From a virus: a stretch of 24,034 nt of DNA. The notes below the pieces were generated by a model that saw only the letters and a list, made by a program, of their open reading frames with translations, searched no databases and was not told the origin of the DNA. The translations under genes and the position numbers were made by a program. Where the stretch lies: the UHGV virus genome UHGV-0029496; one strand, given 5' to 3'. Shown one piece after another: positions 5,310 to 21,506 of this stretch (positions are counted from its first letter, which is position 1; every line of letters starts with the position of its first letter).

Positions 5310-7619
5310 TTAATACCCCGGCTGGTTTCGTGTAGCCCGGCGGGACTTGGAGATTGCACTGTTGCTGTCTTGTAACGCCGCCGATACTGTTTCACTGATG
5401 ATAACACGTAACCGCCCTTCGTCGTCACGCTCTGTAACGGCGGAATCAACTCGTCCGGTGGTGTTGTTGACGATTGTCACGCTGTCACCGCCTGACTTGT
5501 TGCCGTTCTCGCCCATAATCTGGCGCATTTGTTCGGCGGTACGGACGCGTGATGCCCCCGCTGGCATAATAACTTCAGGCTTGTTACGTTCGGCGATGGT
5601 GGATAGTTGCCCGGCGGCTAAGTTACCGCCCTGCTCACGAGCCGAACGAATCTTACCAATGTTCGCCAGACCTGCTGCTACCGCTGCCGCGGCAGCTACG
5701 GGGCCGAGTACCCATCCGACAATAGGAATCGCGGACGCAGATTTATAAGCCTCGATGGCGGAGGTGTATGTGGCTATTGTAGCCTGAGCAATAGCAAACG
5801 CTTTATACGCGCTAGACGCTTCACCAAGTGACGACTTAATATTGTCCGCCATCATGCCGAAAGCGTTACCCGTAGCGTTGGCGCGCTTCAAAGCATACTG
5901 GCCGTTTATCGCGTTAACCGCGGCCTGATACTGTTCCTCGTTTATAAGATTTTGTTCCCGGTACCGGTCTGCAACGTCCAGTTTTTGCTGTTCCTGAATC
6001 TCGAGAAGCTCAAGCTCAGCGGCATTCTGGCCCATAATCTGGGCCATGAAGTCTTCACCTTTCTGGTTCTTTTCCTGCCGTTCTTTCTCTCGCTTGGCGA
6101 GTTCTTCCTGGCGTGCGGTGTCCGCCTCCAGCATAATCTGAGTTTTGGCGTTTTCGTACTGCTGCTGGCTTATTGTTCCTGCTCGGTTGAACTCTTCGAG
6201 TTTCGCCAGTTTCTGTTCTTCCGCCGCGGTGATACGAGAAATTTCGTCTCCGGTTGTACGGTCAACCGTAGCTAGGAAATCTTCTGCGGCTTTCTTCTGG
6301 CGTTGTGCTGCCATTTCTTCACGTTTGGTCTGTGCCGCCAGACGTTCCTCGTTCGATTTAGCCTCTCGGTCGGCCTTCTCTTTCTCGGCCTTGTCAATGC
6401 GGGCGATGTCTTGCTGCGCTTCCGCGTCACGAGCGGCATTATACGCTGCAATCTGTTCTTTGGTGACGGCTTCACGTTTAGCGAACGCCTGTTTATCGAG
6501 TTCAGCTTGCGCCCGGATGCGCTCACGGTCACTTAGGATGGCGATTTGCTGGTTCTTAACAATGGCTTCGTTCTGTTCCTGGAATCTCTGCGTGGTTGAG
6601 TTGACGTTACGACCAAGATTCTTTTGAGCCTCCGCTGCCGCGTTTGCTGACTTCTCCGCGTTCTCCAGTGCCGTGGCGTTCTTGTTGGCATTGTCAGTAA
6701 GGCGTATAAGTTCCGGGTTCAACTGTTCCGTGTTACCTAGCCAGTCGGTGAACACATCGGCGATGCGACGGGCGTTCTCCGCGGTCGGCTCTTTGTTAAA
6801 CGCACTCTGCGCCGCTATCATCTCCAGCGCCTGGTCGCGGTTAACCCCGAACTTACTGCTAAGCTCCGCAATGTTCTGCGCCAGCATGTTGACGCCTACG
6901 ATATTACCCTCGTAAGTGCCGCCGAGTTTTTCTAACGTGTCGCCTACATCAACGCCCTTAGATACCAATGCATCATACTGGCTAATCGCCGATGCCGTGG
7001 ATGCTTTCCACGTTTCCCACGATTCTGCGTCCTCGCGAATGGCTTTAGCTGTTTGCTGCGCGATAAGGTCCGCGTTGGCCTTAGCTAGAGCAAGCTGAGT
7101 CTCCGCCGCTTCTCTGCTGATTTGGGTAAGCTGGATAAGGCCGTCTGTCAGTTCAAGAGAACCGGATGCCGTTTGCTGGAAAGTATCTTTTAACTGCTTC
7201 TGCGCAGCTTCGAGGTCTTTTGAACTGCCTTCTGCTTCGGTTAGCGATTTATACAGGACACCGCCAATTGCTGACGCAAGAGCAATTACAGCCCCAAGCA
7301 CCGCACCACCGGGGCCGAAAGCACCAGCAAGTTGGGAACCTTGCTGCCCTATCGCAACGAATGCAGACGTACCGGATTGCAACTGGACTACCATGTCCTG
7401 CACCTGGTAACCAACCTGCTCGGCGGCATTGCGGAACTTGGCAAAACCGTCGAACACGGCTTTAGACGTAGCGGAATTTACTTTATTAACATCCGGCGTT
7501 AGTTTGTTTACAGATGTGTCCGCCCGGTCTGCGGATGCCGCCATAGCGTCAAGCTGTTTAGCAGCTGCATCAGCGCCTTCTGTTTTTACTCTGGCAATTA
7601 GGGAAGCCGTATCAGCCAT
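5310..7619 (-). CDS. Tail tape measure protein
   Basis: Long Ala/Gln/Glu-rich alpha-helical ORF downstream of the G/T chaperone pair, with Gly-rich hydrophobic segments. Track start is TTG at 7634; first ATG is at 7619 (MADTASLIARVK...). Confidence 0.8.
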   Translation of the reverse strand: MADTASLIARVKTEGADAAAKQLDAMAASADRADTSVNKLTPDVNKVNSATSKAVFDGFAKFRNAAEQVGYQVQDMVVQLQSGTSAFVAIGQQGSQLAGAFGPGGAVLGAVIALASAIGGVLYKSLTEAEGSSKDLEAAQKQLKDTFQQTASGSLELTDGLIQLTQISREAAETQLALAKANADLIAQQTAKAIREDAESWETWKASTASAISQYDALVSKGVDVGDTLEKLGGTYEGNIVGVNMLAQNIAELSSKFGVNRDQALEMIAAQSAFNKEPTAENARRIADVFTDWLGNTEQLNPELIRLTDNANKNATALENAEKSANAAAEAQKNLGRNVNSTTQRFQEQNEAIVKNQQIAILSDRERIRAQAELDKQAFAKREAVTKEQIAAYNAARDAEAQQDIARIDKAEKEKADREAKSNEERLAAQTKREEMAAQRQKKAAEDFLATVDRTTGDEISRITAAEEQKLAKLEEFNRAGTISQQQYENAKTQIMLEADTARQEELAKREKERQEKNQKGEDFMAQIMGQNAAELELLEIQEQQKLDVADRYREQNLINEEQYQAAVNAINGQYALKRANATGNAFGMMADNIKSSLGEASSAYKAFAIAQATIATYTSAIEAYKSASAIPIVGWVLGPVAAAAAVAAGLANIGKIRSAREQGGNLAAGQLSTIAERNKPEVIMPAGASRVRTAEQMRQIMGENGNKSGGDSVTIVNNTTGRVDSAVTERDDEGRLRVIISETVSAALQDSNSAISKSRRATRNQPGY

Positions 7620-8482: not shown

Positions 8483-8516
8483 ATTCTAGCACACTACTTG
8501 CACACCCCAATATAAT
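8483..8516. promoter_or_regulatory. Divergent promoter candidates in the 164-bp gap between the chaperone gene (minus) and the plus-strand cassette
   Basis: Plus strand: perfect TATAAT at 8511-8516, about 40 nt before ATG 8555, weak -35. Minus strand: TAGAAT (plus 8483-8488) with TTGGGG 16 nt upstream. Confidence 0.25.
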
Positions 8517-8554
8517 AGGGTACTATTCACCTGTAACTTACTGAGGAAATAATT

Positions 8555-10496: not shown

Positions 10497-10991
10497 ATGA
10501 TTATGGACTGGAATGAATTTTTCATATACGACTTAATTTCAGGAAGGATATTTAACAGAGTAACACGTTCCGGGAGGGCTAAGGCTGGAGAGGAGGCAGG
10601 TACGGTACAGCGAGACGGATATAGAAGGATATTTTTCAGGGGTAAATGGCACGCGGCGCACCGTATAGCTTGGGACTTAAACAATACTAACAATAAGCTA
10701 ACCTCGTCAGATCAAATAGACCATCTAGACCATAACCGAATAAACAATAGGCCGCTTAACTTAGCTAAAAAGTCCAATGCGGAAAACCATAAAAATATGT
10801 CAAAACAGCGTAATAATAAATCAGGAGTAACCGGGGTTTACTGGAACGCGAAAGAAAGGTTGTGGTACGCACAGATATTCAACAATAACGTAAAAACACA
10901 CATCGGGTGCTTTAAAACGCTACTAGATGCAGTTGCCGCAAGGAGAGTTGCTGAAAGAGATTTAGGGTTCCACGAGAACCACGGTAAATAG
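10497..10991 (+). CDS. HNH homing endonuclease with C-terminal AP2-like DNA-binding domain
   Basis: HNH core AHRIAWDL...IDHLDHNRINNRPLNL; C-terminal GVTGVYWNAKERLWYAQI...IGCFKTLLDAVAARR is AP2-like; Asn-rich and AT-rich codon usage unlike neighbours. AGGAG abuts ATG 10497, so ATG 10503 may be the true start. Confidence 0.75.
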   Translation: MIMDWNEFFIYDLISGRIFNRVTRSGRAKAGEEAGTVQRDGYRRIFFRGKWHAAHRIAWDLNNTNNKLTSSDQIDHLDHNRINNRPLNLAKKSNAENHKNMSKQRNNKSGVTGVYWNAKERLWYAQIFNNNVKTHIGCFKTLLDAVAARRVAERDLGFHENHGK

Positions 10992-15056: not shown

Positions 15057-15085
15057 TAAATGAAAAGAGGGACCGAAGTCCCTCT
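15057..15085 (-). terminator. Rho-independent terminator after the major capsid gene
   Basis: agagggac-cgaa-gtccctct (8-bp stem) followed on the minus strand by UUUCAUUUA. Confidence 0.5.
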
Positions 15086-15101
15086 CGATTATATCTTAAC
15101 C

Positions 15102-16154
15102 TTAAGCCCCGACACCAGTTACCAGGAAGGCAATCGGTACATGCTTACGCTCAACCACACGGTTCCAGTTGGAGGCGTTCGCCAGGTCCTGCCAGGAAGC
15201 AGAGCGGGCGATAGTCTCGGTGCCGTTACCGGTGATTACCGCACTGGTGAAGCTGTAACCAAACGGATGCAGCAACCAGGTCTTACGGGTCCACAGGGTT
15301 TCAACGCCACCACCGTTACCGCGAGACGCTTCGCGCTCGTATTCCAGCGGGTTAGACGGAGAACCTTCACCATAACCAATAGCGCCGTTGCCGAAGATAA
15401 TGGAGATGAACTTACGGCTAGGGCCAGTACCGACTACGGTCATGCTGTCGTCAACAATCACACGGTAGCCCTGGTAGGTGGCGAACATGGTGTTGTTATC
15501 GGCATCGCGGATGAAGTCGATAAGCTGCTGCTTACGCGCCTGTGCATAAACGAAACTGTGCATCGCGATAGCGCCCAGTACTTCACCGCCGTTACCCATC
15601 AGAGCATCGCCCATGGTCTGGGTAGCGTCGATGAATGCGCCCGCGTCGAAGCCCAGAGTCGCGGACACGTCTACTACCATGTCGTTCTGCACGTGGTAAG
15701 CATCGGTAGCGGTTACGTTGTTGTTGTACAGACCTAGCGCAGTAGCAATCAGACGGCGTTGTGCCTGACGCTGCCAGAAGTTATCCAGACGAGAAGCCAC
15801 GGATTGCAGCGGGTTCTGGCTGGTCAGTTCTACAGTCAGGTCAGCCTGTCCAAAGCCTTCGTTCAGGTAAGCTACACGAACGTCCATCTCACCGGTTTGC
15901 ACGTTACGAGGGGTGGCGATGTCCTGATATACGTCGTTCGAGTAGTTCGGCTCGATAGAGGTATCAATCGCTTTCCAGTACGGCAGAACAGCTTTGTTGG
16001 ACGGGCCGTTAGCGATAGCCGCTGCGTACGGAGTCGGGGTCAGAATACCGGACTGGAAGAACGCGGTTTTCTCTACCGGGTCTTCTGTCATGTAAGACAG
16101 AATGACCGATTCTTTACCAGTTACGATGTCGCCGATAGTAGTAATTGCCATCAT
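15102..16154 (-). CDS. Major capsid protein
   Basis: 350 aa directly after the scaffold gene, followed by decoration gene and terminator; GAGGAAAA SD; start overlaps scaffold stop (ATGATGA). Confidence 0.8.
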   Translation of the reverse strand: MMAITTIGDIVTGKESVILSYMTEDPVEKTAFFQSGILTPTPYAAAIANGPSNKAVLPYWKAIDTSIEPNYSNDVYQDIATPRNVQTGEMDVRVAYLNEGFGQADLTVELTSQNPLQSVASRLDNFWQRQAQRRLIATALGLYNNNVTATDAYHVQNDMVVDVSATLGFDAGAFIDATQTMGDALMGNGGEVLGAIAMHSFVYAQARKQQLIDFIRDADNNTMFATYQGYRVIVDDSMTVVGTGPSRKFISIIFGNGAIGYGEGSPSNPLEYEREASRGNGGGVETLWTRKTWLLHPFGYSFTSAVITGNGTETIARSASWQDLANASNWNRVVERKHVPIAFLVTGVGA

Positions 16155-16855
16155 TTTTTCCTCAGGGCTTTAAGTTGCCGTTCAAATTCGGCAGGGTTCG
16201 ATTCGTACAGAGCGATACGCTCCGCTTCACTCATGTCTTTAAACGCTGGTGCGGCCCCGCCACCTTTGCTACCGGAAGCCCCGCCGCCGGAAGCTGCATT
16301 TGCTTTAATCAAATGCGAAAACGCTTTGTGTTCGCGCAGATATTTGCGGAACTGTTCCGGGTCAGTCGTGATTACATTGCCATCTGCACCAACAAACTTA
16401 GTAACCACATCATCGCCTTCGAACTCAGTCTTAACGAACGGCGCAAGAATGTCTACTGCTTCCGGGGTGATAAAGTCGCCCGCGAAAGAGCCTAACACCG
16501 CTTTACGTTCGCTGCCGAGGATGCGCTCTGCCATTTTGGAGATGCGGCCATCTTTCTCGGCTAACACCGGGTCATACTGGCTACGAATCGTCTTTTCGAA
16601 CTCGTCCATCTTACCGGCGGCTTTTAACGCCTCCTGGTGCGCGCGCTGCCGTTCTTCTTCGGCCTCTTTTGCTTTACGAGCGGCTTCTTTCTTCTCCGCC
16701 AGCAATGCTTCCTGATTAGCCTTAAGCCCGGCAACTTCTTTCTCGATCAGCGCCTGAACTTCTTCGGCGGTGAACATTTTCGGCGCGTCACCGCCGCCAG
16801 ATTTATCTTCTGCCCCAGCTTCTTCCTGGAACGGATAACGTAAAAAACGATTCAT
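16151..16855 (-). CDS. Capsid scaffolding protein
   Basis: Charged Ala/Glu/Lys-rich coiled-coil sequence (EEVQALIEKEVAGLKANQEALLAEKKEAARKAKEAEEERQRAHQEALKAAGK) directly upstream of the capsid gene. Track start is TTG 16909; first ATG is 16855. Confidence 0.7.
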   Translation of the reverse strand: MNRFLRYPFQEEAGAEDKSGGGDAPKMFTAEEVQALIEKEVAGLKANQEALLAEKKEAARKAKEAEEERQRAHQEALKAAGKMDEFEKTIRSQYDPVLAEKDGRISKMAERILGSERKAVLGSFAGDFITPEAVDILAPFVKTEFEGDDVVTKFVGADGNVITTDPEQFRKYLREHKAFSHLIKANAASGGGASGSKGGGAAPAFKDMSEAERIALYESNPAEFERQLKALRKK

Positions 16856-16909
16856 AGTCAGTATGTCCCCTGGACTTTGGAACCCGGGCCACCCGGATTT
16901 ACATGTCAA

Positions 16910-16928
16910 GAATAAATTATTCCAACAT
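16910..16928 (-). repeat. Copy A of a repeated intergenic motif (minus orientation ATGTTGGAATAAnnTATTC) abutting a TTGACA hexamer
   Basis: 12/12 identical core (ttattccaacat, plus 16917-16928) and 17/19 over the extended motif with copy B at 17692-17710. Confidence 0.5.
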
Positions 16929-16937
16929 GCAAGGCAA

Positions 16938-17201
16938 CTATTCCAGAATATTCCTCACGTAATCCTGCAACATGAACACTTTCAGTCTCAGTTGCCGTAC
17001 GCATTCGGCGTTCTGAACATCAATAGCCAAATCCTCGTCTGTGTCGCTACTTGGCGCGGCCAGTTTGCACGGCGGCTGCATCATCGTCGTATCCGGGGAT
17101 GGAATTGGCGTTTGCGACGGCGCGGGACTTGAGCTGCACGCGCTCAGGGTCAAAAGTGCACACGCTGCGACCAGGCGTTTTAATGTACTTAACGACTTCA
17201 C
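16938..17201 (-). CDS. o-spanin (Rz1-like outer-membrane lipoprotein)
   Basis: GTG start with GAGGT SD; signal peptide plus perfect lipobox LSAC; Pro-rich mature part (CSSSPAPSQTPIPSPD); starts inside the Rz-like ORF in another frame and extends past its stop. Confidence 0.55.
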   Translation of the reverse strand: MKSLSTLKRLVAACALLTLSACSSSPAPSQTPIPSPDTTMMQPPCKLAAPSSDTDEDLAIDVQNAECVRQLRLKVFMLQDYVRNILE

Positions 17202-17433
17202 GGGTAATTACCTCTGATTTCGTCTTGCCTTCGTTGTCAGCGGCTGCGGCCTTTGATTCGTCCTGCTGCTGCCGTTGTGTTTTCTTCGCCAGCTCGGCCT
17301 GCGCTTTCTGCTGTTGCTGCGAAACGAGATTAGCCCGGCCTTCGTTCCACCCTTGAAGATAGTTGTATTTCCCGTAAGCGAAAACGAGAAACGCGGAACA
17401 TGCCGTGGTTATGATTGCTGCTTTAAGATTCAT
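17047..17433 (-). CDS. i-spanin (Rz-like)
   Basis: AAGGAG SD; N-terminal transmembrane segment AAIITTACSAFLVFAY followed by a Gln/Lys/Glu-rich coiled-coil region; overlapped by the lipoprotein ORF. Confidence 0.55.
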   Translation of the reverse strand: MNLKAAIITTACSAFLVFAYGKYNYLQGWNEGRANLVSQQQQKAQAELAKKTQRQQQDESKAAAADNEGKTKSEVITREVVKYIKTPGRSVCTFDPERVQLKSRAVANANSIPGYDDDAAAVQTGRAK

Positions 17434-17457
17434 GTTTCTCCTTTCTCGATAAGTAAA

Positions 17458-17477
17458 GCCCCGCCTTAAAGCGGGGC
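17458..17477 (-). promoter_or_regulatory. Hairpin in the 5' leader just upstream of the Rz-like RBS
   Basis: gccccgc-cttaaa-gcggggc (7-bp stem), followed on the minus strand by UUUACUUAUCG and then the SD. Confidence 0.35.
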
Positions 17478-17656
17478 GCTAGTCCTTATCATTTAAACAT
17501 AGAAACGGCGTAATCTCAGTAAACCAGTTACTTTTTACACAAGCAATAGACTATGGCCCTTCCGAACGCGTCAGCGACACTACACTCAGTGCTAACGCAC
17601 CGCTCCGTTCTCCTGCCGCGCCGCGGTCGCTTGTTCATACTTCACAAGCTCAGGTG

Positions 17657-17685
17657 GAGCTTATCATATTTTTAGTGAAAAGTCA
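17657..17685 (-). promoter_or_regulatory. Sigma70-like promoter candidate driving minus-strand genes
   Basis: Minus strand TTGACT (plus 17680-17685), 17-nt spacer, TGaTAAGCT extended -10 (plus 17657-17662). Confidence 0.3.
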
Positions 17686-17691
17686 ACTATT

Positions 17692-17710
17692 CGAATAGTT
17701 TATTCCAACA
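17692..17710 (-). repeat. Copy B of the repeated intergenic motif, 6 nt upstream of the TTGACT -35 candidate
   Basis: See copy A; core ttattccaacat at plus 17699-17710. Confidence 0.5.
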
Positions 17711-17744
17711 TTTACAATTGAGGGGAATAACTGGAATAATCACA

Positions 17745-17770
17745 GGCATTAAAAAGCCCCTTTCGGGGCT
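17745..17770 (-). terminator. Rho-independent terminator after the Ig-like gene
   Basis: aagcccc-tttc-ggggctt (7-bp stem) followed on the minus strand by UUUUAAUG; starts 6 nt after the stop codon. Confidence 0.7.
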
Positions 17771-17775
17771 TCAGT

Positions 17776-18237
17776 TTATTCCGGCTTAGTAACCTTCGCC
17801 GCTTTGCTTACGGCCTCTACACCATCGGCATCGGTGGCTTTAACGAAGTATTCACCGACTGCATTAACTGTCAGAGACAGAGCCTCTTCCGGGGCGTTTA
17901 CCACTTCCTTACCGTCTTTGTACCAGGTCAGAGCATACGGGGCTTTACCCGCCTTAACTTCGACAGTGATAGTCGCACTGCCGTCTGCCAGTTCAGCGTC
18001 TTTCGGCTGTACCGAGAAGTACACGTCACCTGCATTGACCAAATACGGAATCTCATAAACCATACCTGCCGCGGGTAACGCAATACCGGTCTTGTCAGCA
18101 AACGGCATATCGTCTACAGGCGAACCCAGTACACTTTCATCTTCAATAAACACCACGTTCTCACCAGAGCCAGACACACGGGCGTACTGGACTACGCGAC
18201 GCGACGGCACATCAGTTACTTTGAAAAAGCCCATCAT
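17776..18237 (-). CDS. Ig-like domain protein (minor capsid or decoration candidate)
   Basis: AAGGGG SD; ATGATG start overlaps the upstream stop; C-terminal Ig-type signature YALTWYKDGKEV. Confidence 0.5.
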   Translation of the reverse strand: MMGFFKVTDVPSRRVVQYARVSGSGENVVFIEDESVLGSPVDDMPFADKTGIALPAAGMVYEIPYLVNAGDVYFSVQPKDAELADGSATITVEVKAGKAPYALTWYKDGKEVVNAPEEALSLTVNAVGEYFVKATDADGVEAVSKAAKVTKPE

Positions 18238-20835: not shown

Positions 20836-21450
20836 TTACTCCGTAGTTAGTTTACGATATACAGCCGCGCACTTTCGCCCGCAGGTGACACGAGGTTTAT
20901 AGCGGTTATGCTCGTGAGTAGCGCCGCAGACGGGGCATATAGCTGTTACGTTATCTACCCCCGAAGCCCGTCTATGTGCCGCTAAGCATCTTTTAGAACA
21001 AAAACAATTCTCGCCCTTTGTCGGTATGGCCGTAAACTCTTTGTTGCAATAAGAGCATATTTTTTCAACCTTAACGTGAAGTTTGTCTTTTGTGGCTTCG
21101 TAATGTGCCTTATGCCACTGCCGGCCTGCTTCACTGGCGTGCCACTCTTTAGTTAAATGCTGGTGCTTGCGGCCCATTTCGGCCGACCTGGCACGCGCTT
21201 CATCAGTAGAGAAATGCAGATAGCTATGGTCTGACGCCGAAAGCATCTCTAGGTTTTCTATTTGATTATTTGAGCGGTCTTCGTCTTTATGGTGGATGTC
21301 ATACCCTTCTGGGATTTCCCCGTTGAAATATGACCATACAACTCTGTGCAACCTTTTAACAATTGATGAGTTCATAAAATAGTTACCACACAAATAGTAA
21401 CGCGTACCGTTAAATTCTTGGATTGTTGGGGATATAACTTTTACTCGCAT
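20836..21450 (-). CDS. HNH endonuclease with C-terminal Cys-rich zinc-ribbon region
   Basis: HNH core YDIHHKDEDRSNNQIENLEMLSASDHSYLH; Cys clusters CSYCNKEF, CFCSKRC, CPVCGATHEH, CGRKC. Track start is TTG 21477; ATG 21450 follows an AGGAGG SD. Confidence 0.8.
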   Translation of the reverse strand: MRVKVISPTIQEFNGTRYYLCGNYFMNSSIVKRLHRVVWSYFNGEIPEGYDIHHKDEDRSNNQIENLEMLSASDHSYLHFSTDEARARSAEMGRKHQHLTKEWHASEAGRQWHKAHYEATKDKLHVKVEKICSYCNKEFTAIPTKGENCFCSKRCLAAHRRASGVDNVTAICPVCGATHEHNRYKPRVTCGRKCAAVYRKLTTE

Positions 21451-21506
21451 ATAGCCTCCTGATTGTTTACCTGACAATATCAGTAAGACCGATGCGAGTA
21501 AATACG

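Follow-up and report, generated by a model that had tools for sequence, protein, structure and literature searches.

A probable Jersey-family spanin gene pair at its usual place beside the head genes of a Kagunavirus-like phage, and a candidate leader RNA upstream of it

The virus genome UHGV-0029496 was analyzed over a stretch of 24,034 nucleotides (nt), referred to below as the window, with the focus on two overlapping reading frames at positions 16938-17433 of the minus strand. A preliminary description of this sequence had proposed that the two frames encode an overlapped i-spanin/o-spanin pair, and this identification proved right by PHROG profiles, by the match to the Jersey family and by GenBank annotation: it is highly probable that the two genes are a real i-spanin/o-spanin pair, namely a two-component spanin of the "Jersey" family. 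The same description had regarded spanins detached from the lysis genes and embedded among the head genes as unusual, which does not hold, the same placement being found throughout the subfamily Guernseyvirinae, annotated in GenBank and published. Both the spanin pair and its placement are already known and catalogued, and the identification is correct but ordinary. The pair comprises the following features:

17047-17433, minus strand: i-spanin gene, ATG start, 128 amino acids (aa); phrog_2536 "Rz-like spanin", E 1.3e-54; 83% aa identity to the i-spanin of phage Sciku.
16938-17201, minus strand: o-spanin gene, GTG start, 87 aa, putative outer-membrane lipoprotein precursor; phrog_5672 (E 8.8e-30) and phrog_1267 (E 3.7e-20), "Rz-like spanin".
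17047-17201, minus strand: two-frame region of 155 nt (i-spanin 3' end and o-spanin 5' end); the same 155-bp overlap was reported for phage Jersey (PMC6139136).
17371-17421, minus strand: codons of the predicted transmembrane segment of i-spanin, residues ~5-21 (Kyte-Doolittle maximum at the N-terminus).
17136-17201, minus strand: signal peptide of o-spanin with the lipobox LSAC (codons 17147-17136; lipidated Cys22 predicted), from a regular expression and a PROSITE PS51257-like match.
17438-17443, minus strand: Shine-Dalgarno sequence AAGGAG of the i-spanin gene, strong and of consensus type, conserved in both alignments of relatives.
17211-17214, minus strand: GAGG resembling a Shine-Dalgarno sequence, 9 nt 5' of the o-spanin GTG; a ribosome-binding site is annotated at the equivalent site of Sciku.

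Membership in a known spanin family was established by several kinds of similarity. In addition to the PHROG matches listed above, the pair gave weaker cross-matches to further spanin families (phrog_1152, 8821 and 456). A 1-kb query around the pair retrieved 214 phage records at high stringency and the 496-nt pair itself 487 records at low stringency; many of the matching GenBank records are labelled "i-spanin/o-spanin", "Rz-like spanin" or "putative spanin", and the annotation is curated in phages Sciku, Shemara and BPS11T2, the Sciku record basing its labels on the spanins of K1G. The two Sciku spanin proteins match the window by tblastn with E-values of 8e-69 and 4e-43, the o-spanins being 87% identical at the aa level, and the nucleotide identity between K1H and the window within the pair is 81-97% by segment. 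Previously, Kongari et al. (2018; PMC6139136) placed Jersey, SETP3, K1G, K1H, K1ind1-3 and other phages in one family of overlapped spanins, which is characterized by a 155-bp overlap and constant o-spanin residues Cys45 and Cys67. The pair from the window matches every trait of this family, including the similarity of both proteins, the overlap and the Cys positions. It has in common with the known members an 83-98% aa identity to Sciku and K1H in the conserved parts, the protein lengths of 128 and 87 aa, the overlap, the Cys pattern and the site between a Hoc-like gene and the scaffold gene, and differs from them only in alleles. The mosaicism concerns the i-spanin membrane segment (17334-17433), which is the allele of Salmonella phage skrot with one residue different, whereas most Kagunavirus phages carry another allele. 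Around the spanin pair, the nucleotide identity to any deposited phage does not exceed ~92%.

The 128-aa frame, for which an N-terminal transmembrane helix had been proposed, was found at its expected place with a hydropathy maximum at the N-terminus (residues ~5-21, AAIITTACSAFLVFAYG). Nothing past these residues is hydrophobic, the remainder being rich in Gln, Ala and Lys, and the N-terminus is hydrophobic across all relatives despite its sequence variation; a single N-terminal transmembrane domain of this kind is that of a protein with type II inner-membrane topology. The only Cys beyond the membrane segment is Cys92. A single-sequence AlphaFold model consists of one confident helix at residues 3-63, with residues 68-128 at a predicted local distance difference test (pLDDT) score below 50, and supports a predicted architecture of a membrane helix continued by a helical stalk. 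For the Jersey-family i-spanin, two helices and a linker with two beta strands were predicted by Kongari et al. (PMC6139136).

The 87-aa frame was confirmed in every respect in which it had been described: the GTG start, the signal peptide, the LSAC lipobox, the Pro-rich mature part and the overlap in another frame. The protein starts with MKSLSTLKRLVAACALLTLSAC and has Ser rather than Asp at the +2 position, a combination of signal peptidase II lipobox and +2 residue that fits a lipoprotein precursor. Its mature part comprises 66 aa with 8 Pro, and its Cys residues occupy positions 45 and 67 of the full-length protein. The o-spanin frame is +1 relative to that of i-spanin and extends beyond the i-spanin stop, so that the two genes, adjacent and with i-spanin first, represent the overlapped class among the embedded, overlapped and separated arrangements of two-component spanins (Summer 2007; Kongari 2018). 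The Cys residues predicted to be periplasmic (i-spanin Cys92, o-spanin Cys45 and Cys67) are kept throughout the relatives, Shemara and Serratia phage Tsm2 among them.

The second frame is open, with its start at the identical position, in all sequences examined, i.e., ten annotated relatives and ~45 viral contigs. From the pattern scan of the viral contigs, the chance matches L014, L023, L030, L038 and L039 were discarded as lying inside unrelated coding sequence. The o-spanin start codon is GTG, or ATG in wksl3 and L053. The lipobox Cys is always kept while the signal peptide has diverged (LSAC, LASC, LSGC and LNGC, with ITGC in Shemara and LTAC in Tsm2). In the 109 nt unique to the o-spanin gene, 96, 42 and 13 substitutions relative to the window fall at codon positions 3, 1 and 2, respectively, and in the overlap most changes hit position 3 of the i-spanin frame. 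Judged from these sequence comparisons, both reading frames are under purifying selection.

The reality of the o-spanin gene could be questioned on the basis of the deposited annotations, which would suggest that only the 128-aa gene is real and that the 87-aa frame is unexpressed or yields only a 47-48-aa soluble peptide from an internal ATG (Met40/41). The records of skrot, TS3 and fBC-Eco01 annotate a 144-147-nt open reading frame (ORF) from this internal ATG (47-48 aa) instead of the full o-spanin, and those of hz69, ER20, wksl3 and Tsm2 annotate none, the Tsm2 o-spanin having been found by translation. Moreover, phrog_5672 is a 47-position profile built on the short form that matches only o-spanin residues 41-87, and the start codon of the long form is GTG. 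However, the frame upstream of Met40 is open in all relatives and is accompanied there by a co-located start codon, a Shine-Dalgarno sequence and the lipobox Cys. The starts of o-spanin genes are commonly mis-called, with 196 genes unannotated and 64 with wrong starts (Kongari 2018; PMC6139136), and the missing or 47-48-aa annotations are an instance of this known problem. A single-gene locus or a short soluble product is extremely unlikely, and the full-length o-spanin is retained.

Several points nevertheless weigh against the assignment of the two genes as a Jersey-family spanin pair. The hydropathy of the i-spanin membrane helix (Kyte-Doolittle 19-residue mean of 1.59) is borderline by the classical threshold of 1.6. 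The C-terminal half of i-spanin is without a confident model; the coiled-coil body that had been proposed for this protein is borne out in part, by the confident helix of residues 3-63. Neither protein reaches the curated Pfam and NCBIfam spanin models: the lambda-type Pfam models Phage_lysis and Rz1 gave no match to either protein at E up to 0.1, and the best scores, 14.9 bits for LysC (PF23793) and 18.6 bits for P2_Rz1 (NF038368), compare with a cut-off of 27 in both cases. Finally, no genetic or biochemical test of any Jersey-family spanin was found in the literature searched. Since the curated models are below their cut-offs, the family was assigned from PHROGs, direct similarity and published work, and the pair, although a member of the Jersey family, is a functional analogue of lambda Rz/Rz1, "Rz-like" by design, and not its demonstrable homologue.

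A different function has in its favour that small lipoproteins encoded by phages away from a lysis cassette often serve in exclusion, that the pair is distant from holin and endolysin, and that the literature searched gave no experimental test of the family. The lipoprotein would then be of the superinfection-exclusion or receptor-masking type (cf. T5 Llp and Cor) and protect the infected cell or the progeny, the membrane protein being its partner or unrelated to it. Against this, the lipoprotein gene always overlaps and is coupled with the gene for a type II membrane protein, which is the spanin signature, and the profile similarity to several Rz1-like families, the sub-threshold likeness to P2 LysC and the paired-Cys pattern are likewise those of spanins. 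In addition, relatives possess a separate Imm-like immunity gene, and the fully annotated Sciku genome shows no other spanin candidate. An exclusion function is very unlikely, and a spanin function is preferred.

By analogy with lambda Rz/Rz1, a mechanism can be proposed in which the topology, complex formation and membrane fusion are inferred. The N-terminal helix would anchor the 128-aa i-spanin in the inner membrane, the remainder of the protein reaching into the periplasm, and the 87-aa precursor would be exported, lipidated at Cys22, cleaved and, given Ser at +2, targeted to the outer membrane, at its inner leaflet. The C-terminal parts of both proteins would bind each other, giving periplasm-spanning complexes that pass through the meshes of the murein, and homodimers would probably be stabilized by disulfides involving i-spanin Cys92 and o-spanin Cys45/Cys67. 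Such complexes would build up harmlessly in late infection until the firing of the holin and the destruction of murein by the endolysin made them mobile, whereupon the two membranes would be fused or disrupted and lysis completed. Because murein would restrain the spanin complex until then, the spanin genes would need late expression only and not linkage to the holin and endolysin genes.

The pair shares with lambda Rz/Rz1 the combination of a type II inner-membrane protein and a small Pro-rich lipoprotein encoded in two frames, with periplasmic Cys residues. The lambda Rz1 gene lies wholly inside Rz, and both come after S and R in one cassette, whereas in the window the small gene outruns the end of the large one, the pair is ~8 kb from the endolysin, and neither product matches the Pfam Rz or Rz1 models. 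Phage P2 LysB/LysC are likewise overlapped and not embedded, and the lipoprotein has a weak profile likeness to LysC (PF23793, E 0.027; NF038368, E 0.0016); the window scores stay below the curated cut-offs, and the P2 pair lies within the lysis cassette. The spanin genes of T7 (gp18.5/gp18.7) are unlinked and lie between the two terminase genes. Those of T4 (PseT.3/PseT.2), a pair of the separated type, are also not adjacent to holin and endolysin (PMC6139136), although the spanins of both T4 and T7 belong to other sequence families and have other neighbouring genes than the pair in the window. The Cornellvirus spanins (FSL_SP-031, Shemara) have homologous periplasmic domains and the same genomic neighbourhood (PMC6139136), but their overlap is of only 8 nt ("separated" class), the C-terminus of their i-spanin is shorter, and their signal peptide, MNKLFLLAVIIGITGC, is unrelated; the FSL_SP-031 form was described by Kongari et al. 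as related to the Jersey family and "separated", with an 8-bp overlap (PMC6139136).

The whole window is ~90% identical to Kagunavirus phages, the best match being phage hz69 with 91% of the window covered, and it represents the structural half of the genome of a Kagunavirus-like, virulent siphophage of the subfamily Guernseyvirinae. According to PHROG scans, the minus-strand gene order begins with the small and large terminase, an HNH endonuclease, the portal and an SPP1-gp7/MuF head morphogenesis protein, and continues with a Hoc-like Ig protein, the spanin pair, scaffold, major capsid protein, decoration protein, connector proteins, tail tube and tail genes. The neighbours named in the preliminary description are thereby identified, the upstream Ig-like and MuF-like genes encoding the Hoc-like Ig-domain and SPP1-gp7/MuF-type proteins and the scaffold gene lying downstream:

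16151-16855, minus strand: scaffold gene, ATG at 16855, the next gene 3' of the spanins; phrog_206, E 2.7e-54; a 702-nt scaffold gene in relatives.

As suggested for verification in that description, relatives were inspected for the same placement, and the order Hoc-like gene, spanins, scaffold, capsid was found in Kagunavirus (Sciku, K1H, hz69, fBC-Eco01), Jerseyvirus (skrot, ER20, BPS11T2, wksl3, TS3), Cornellvirus (Shemara) and the unclassified Serratia phage Tsm2. In the genomes compared, the placement of the spanins beside the head genes is a fixed arrangement of the subfamily Guernseyvirinae. The separation of the spanins from the holin and endolysin genes was already in print (Schulenberg 2019, PMC6763661) and is likewise stated in the fBC-Eco01 paper (2023, PMC9825357).

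The holin and endolysin genes, which were to be sought elsewhere in the genome, were located in relatives. In Sciku and hz69, the holin/antiholin and endolysin genes are encoded by the strand of the spanins, ~8 kb upstream of them (coordinates in the 43-kb Sciku genome: antiholin/holin pair and endolysin, 40133-41196; spanins, 5826-6321), and the interval is occupied by small ORFs and the terminase, portal, MuF and Hoc-like genes; a canonical contiguous holin-endolysin-spanin cassette is not formed. A tblastn search of the window with the holins and the endolysin of relatives gave no homologue, all E-values exceeding 0.3. The earlier statement that no holin or endolysin is nearby holds for the window itself, but reflects an edge effect, as the hz69 endolysin lies on the same strand ~1.4 kb past the point that matches the right end of the window.

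Given the head-gene location, between the Hoc-like and MuF genes and the scaffold and probably in one transcript with scaffold and capsid, the pair might also be thought morphogenetic, e.g., a membrane-anchored assembly or scaffolding accessory. The larger ORF, for which homology to a structural protein had been raised as a possible objection to the spanin identification, has no similarity to any structural family, nor does the pair as a whole, and both proteins carry export or membrane signals that are needless for cytoplasmic head assembly. The site is, moreover, an insertion hot spot, where unrelated genes (sliding clamp, phosphatase, HNH) are found in relatives, which argues for a module boundary and not for a head assembly set. 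A morphogenetic role has hardly any probability, and the two genes are treated further as spanins.

One insertion lies within the spanin pair itself. In Escherichia phage fEg-Eco19 (L004, 1501-2565), an HNH homing endonuclease gene interrupts the pair; the i-spanin has acquired a new, shorter C-terminus (119 aa), and the o-spanin a new signal sequence, MRLPILLLVIWCYGC, which overlaps the end of the HNH gene. The insertion converted an overlapped pair into a separated one, as Kongari et al. (2018) describe for T5 versus Shivani.

Upstream of the pair, the preliminary description had noted a non-coding region of ~340 bp with a promoter candidate, and a spacer of 342 nt (17434-17775) with no conserved ORF was indeed delimited there. 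A 36-aa ORF (17528-17638, minus strand) was rejected as a gene: hz69 and fBC-Eco01 retain only 9 aa of it, and the BPS11T2/wksl3/TS3 clade lacks its start. Sciku and other phages have this ORF labelled as a hypothetical protein; it lies within the structured RNA motif described below. The following features of the spacer and of the end of the capsid gene bear on transcription of the pair:

17754-17771, minus strand: intrinsic terminator hairpin AGCCCCGAAAGGGGCT followed by a T run, directly after the Hoc-like gene stop; annotated equivalently in Sciku and fBC-Eco01.
17658-17686, minus strand: P1, sigma-70-like promoter candidate; -35 element TTGACT (17686-17681), 17-nt spacer, extended -10 element TG-n-TAAGCT (17666-17658).
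17544-17657, minus strand: candidate structured leader RNA motif of ~113 nt, a small hairpin and a long irregular hairpin; covariance model R1, 138.7 bits.
17458-17477, minus strand: G+C-rich, terminator-like hairpin GCCCCGC-TTTAAG-GCGGGGC, 24 nt 5' of the i-spanin ATG; labelled a terminator in the fBC-Eco01 record.
15065-15086, minus strand: terminator 3' of the major capsid gene; the Sciku and Shemara records likewise annotate one there.

The terminator at 17771-17754 ends the upstream packaging/head unit. No minus-strand terminator was found between o-spanin and scaffold (16856-16937), and the next one, at 15086-15065, is probably the end of a spanin-scaffold-capsid transcription unit; a terminator before the spanins and none until after the capsid gene make such a unit likely. 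The spanins would be the first genes of this late unit, composed of promoter and leader, spanins, scaffold, capsid and terminator.

Across 181 phage records, the identity of the spacer to that of the window is 93-96%; among them are Salmonella phages of Jerseyvirus in which the spanin, scaffold and capsid genes are only 70-82% identical to the window (spanins, 70-80%). A spacer more conserved than its flanking genes suggests either strong constraint or recent exchange of this segment; a second, diverged spacer allele is present in the BPS11T2 clade. A sigma-70 consensus scan returned no minus-strand promoter in the spacer, P1 scoring below threshold, so that P1 was recognized only via conservation and its extended -10 element: the TGnTAnGCT of P1 is invariant in Kagunavirus and Jerseyvirus, and P1 was predicted as "host promoter1" in fBC-Eco01. 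Upstream of P1, the minus strand contains two TTATTCC repeats and a GAATA-N3-TATTC palindrome. The possibility that TTATTCC/GGAATAA is a genome-wide late-promoter motif was rejected; the double repeat occurs only once in the window and only once in Sciku, and several single copies are merely overlaps of Shine-Dalgarno sequences with stop codons. The hairpin at 17477-17458 occurs in relatives in three independent compensatory variants (CCCAGC/GCTGGG, CCCGAC/GTCGGG and CCCGGC/GCCGGG). It is more likely a structure of the 5' untranslated region or a leaky attenuator than an efficient terminator, because its U tail is weak and the scaffold and capsid genes lie downstream.

Further elements were observed in the 82 nt that separate the o-spanin stop from the scaffold start (16856-16937, minus strand). 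A GAATA-N3-TATTC palindrome at 16923-16910 resembles the one upstream of P1, a perfect TTGACA is present at 16909-16904 with no evident -10 element, and a hairpin CCGGG-TGG-CCCGG at 16896-16884 is nearly invariant even in Serratia phage Tsm2.

The leader motif lies directly 3' of P1 and precedes the spanin genes in Kagunavirus and Jerseyvirus. Five sequence variants of it fold independently to one shape, and covariance model R1 found 70 copies across 85 sources. In the model-based alignment, 96.3% of cells are paired, compared with 85.4% in shuffles and 30-38% in slid controls, figures that lean in favour of the structure as the alignment was fitted to it. Both sides have changed in 13 of the 26 pairs, one pair occurring with five pair types. 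As the thermodynamic support is weak (z-scores from 0.07 to -4.07), the case for the leader rests on this covariation. A search of positions 16800-17900 against Rfam at E up to 1 gave no match.

A second copy of promoter and motif (~80% identity) was found in the early divergent region of Sciku (L001, 37503-37646) and in 16 of 32 other contigs sampled at that locus (17 of 33 including Sciku, or about half of the Kagunavirus genomes sampled), the remainder having unrelated sequence there. This copy is located where the rightward unit with the lysis (holin, endolysin) and packaging genes begins; in two-copy genomes, the detached spanins and the other lysis genes could be under one type of control. 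The leader in the window and the second-copy (B) element of contig L076 have identical central hairpins (17570-17610 in the window), a finding suggestive of exchange between the copies. We tentatively propose, as a possibility with the odds against it, that P1, the ~113-nt RNA and the hairpin at 17477-17458 constitute an undescribed cis-acting leader of Guernseyvirinae for late expression of spanins, scaffold and capsid. Its possible roles include processive antitermination in the style of HK022 put RNA and action as an RNase-processed stabilizing leader. The leader RNA, which was no part of the preliminary description, is the sole lead of this analysis that may be new.

Elsewhere in the window, the 20-nt repeated "phage promoter" motif of the fBC-Eco01 paper (TGAATAGTACCCTATTATAT) has one exact copy, at 8510-8529 (minus strand), in the divergent region that precedes the tail chaperone/tape-measure operon; this PHIRE-derived consensus has no match near the spanins, its only match in the window being this site. 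A free-standing HNH endonuclease gene (20836-21477, minus strand; PF13392, E 1e-18) occupies the interval between large terminase and portal, which is gene-free in Sciku and hz69. A second free-standing HNH gene (10497-10991, plus strand) is called from an HNH-like motif.

The spanin finding in itself adds little, representing one more species-level variant of a catalogued family at its usual place. Its use is as a reminder that o-spanin genes in Guernseyvirinae are often missed or mis-started in deposited genomes. No study of transcription in Guernseyvirinae was found in the literature searched; if functional, the leader RNA would offer the first handle on late-gene control in this common group of Escherichia coli and Salmonella phages, which is used in therapy and biocontrol work.

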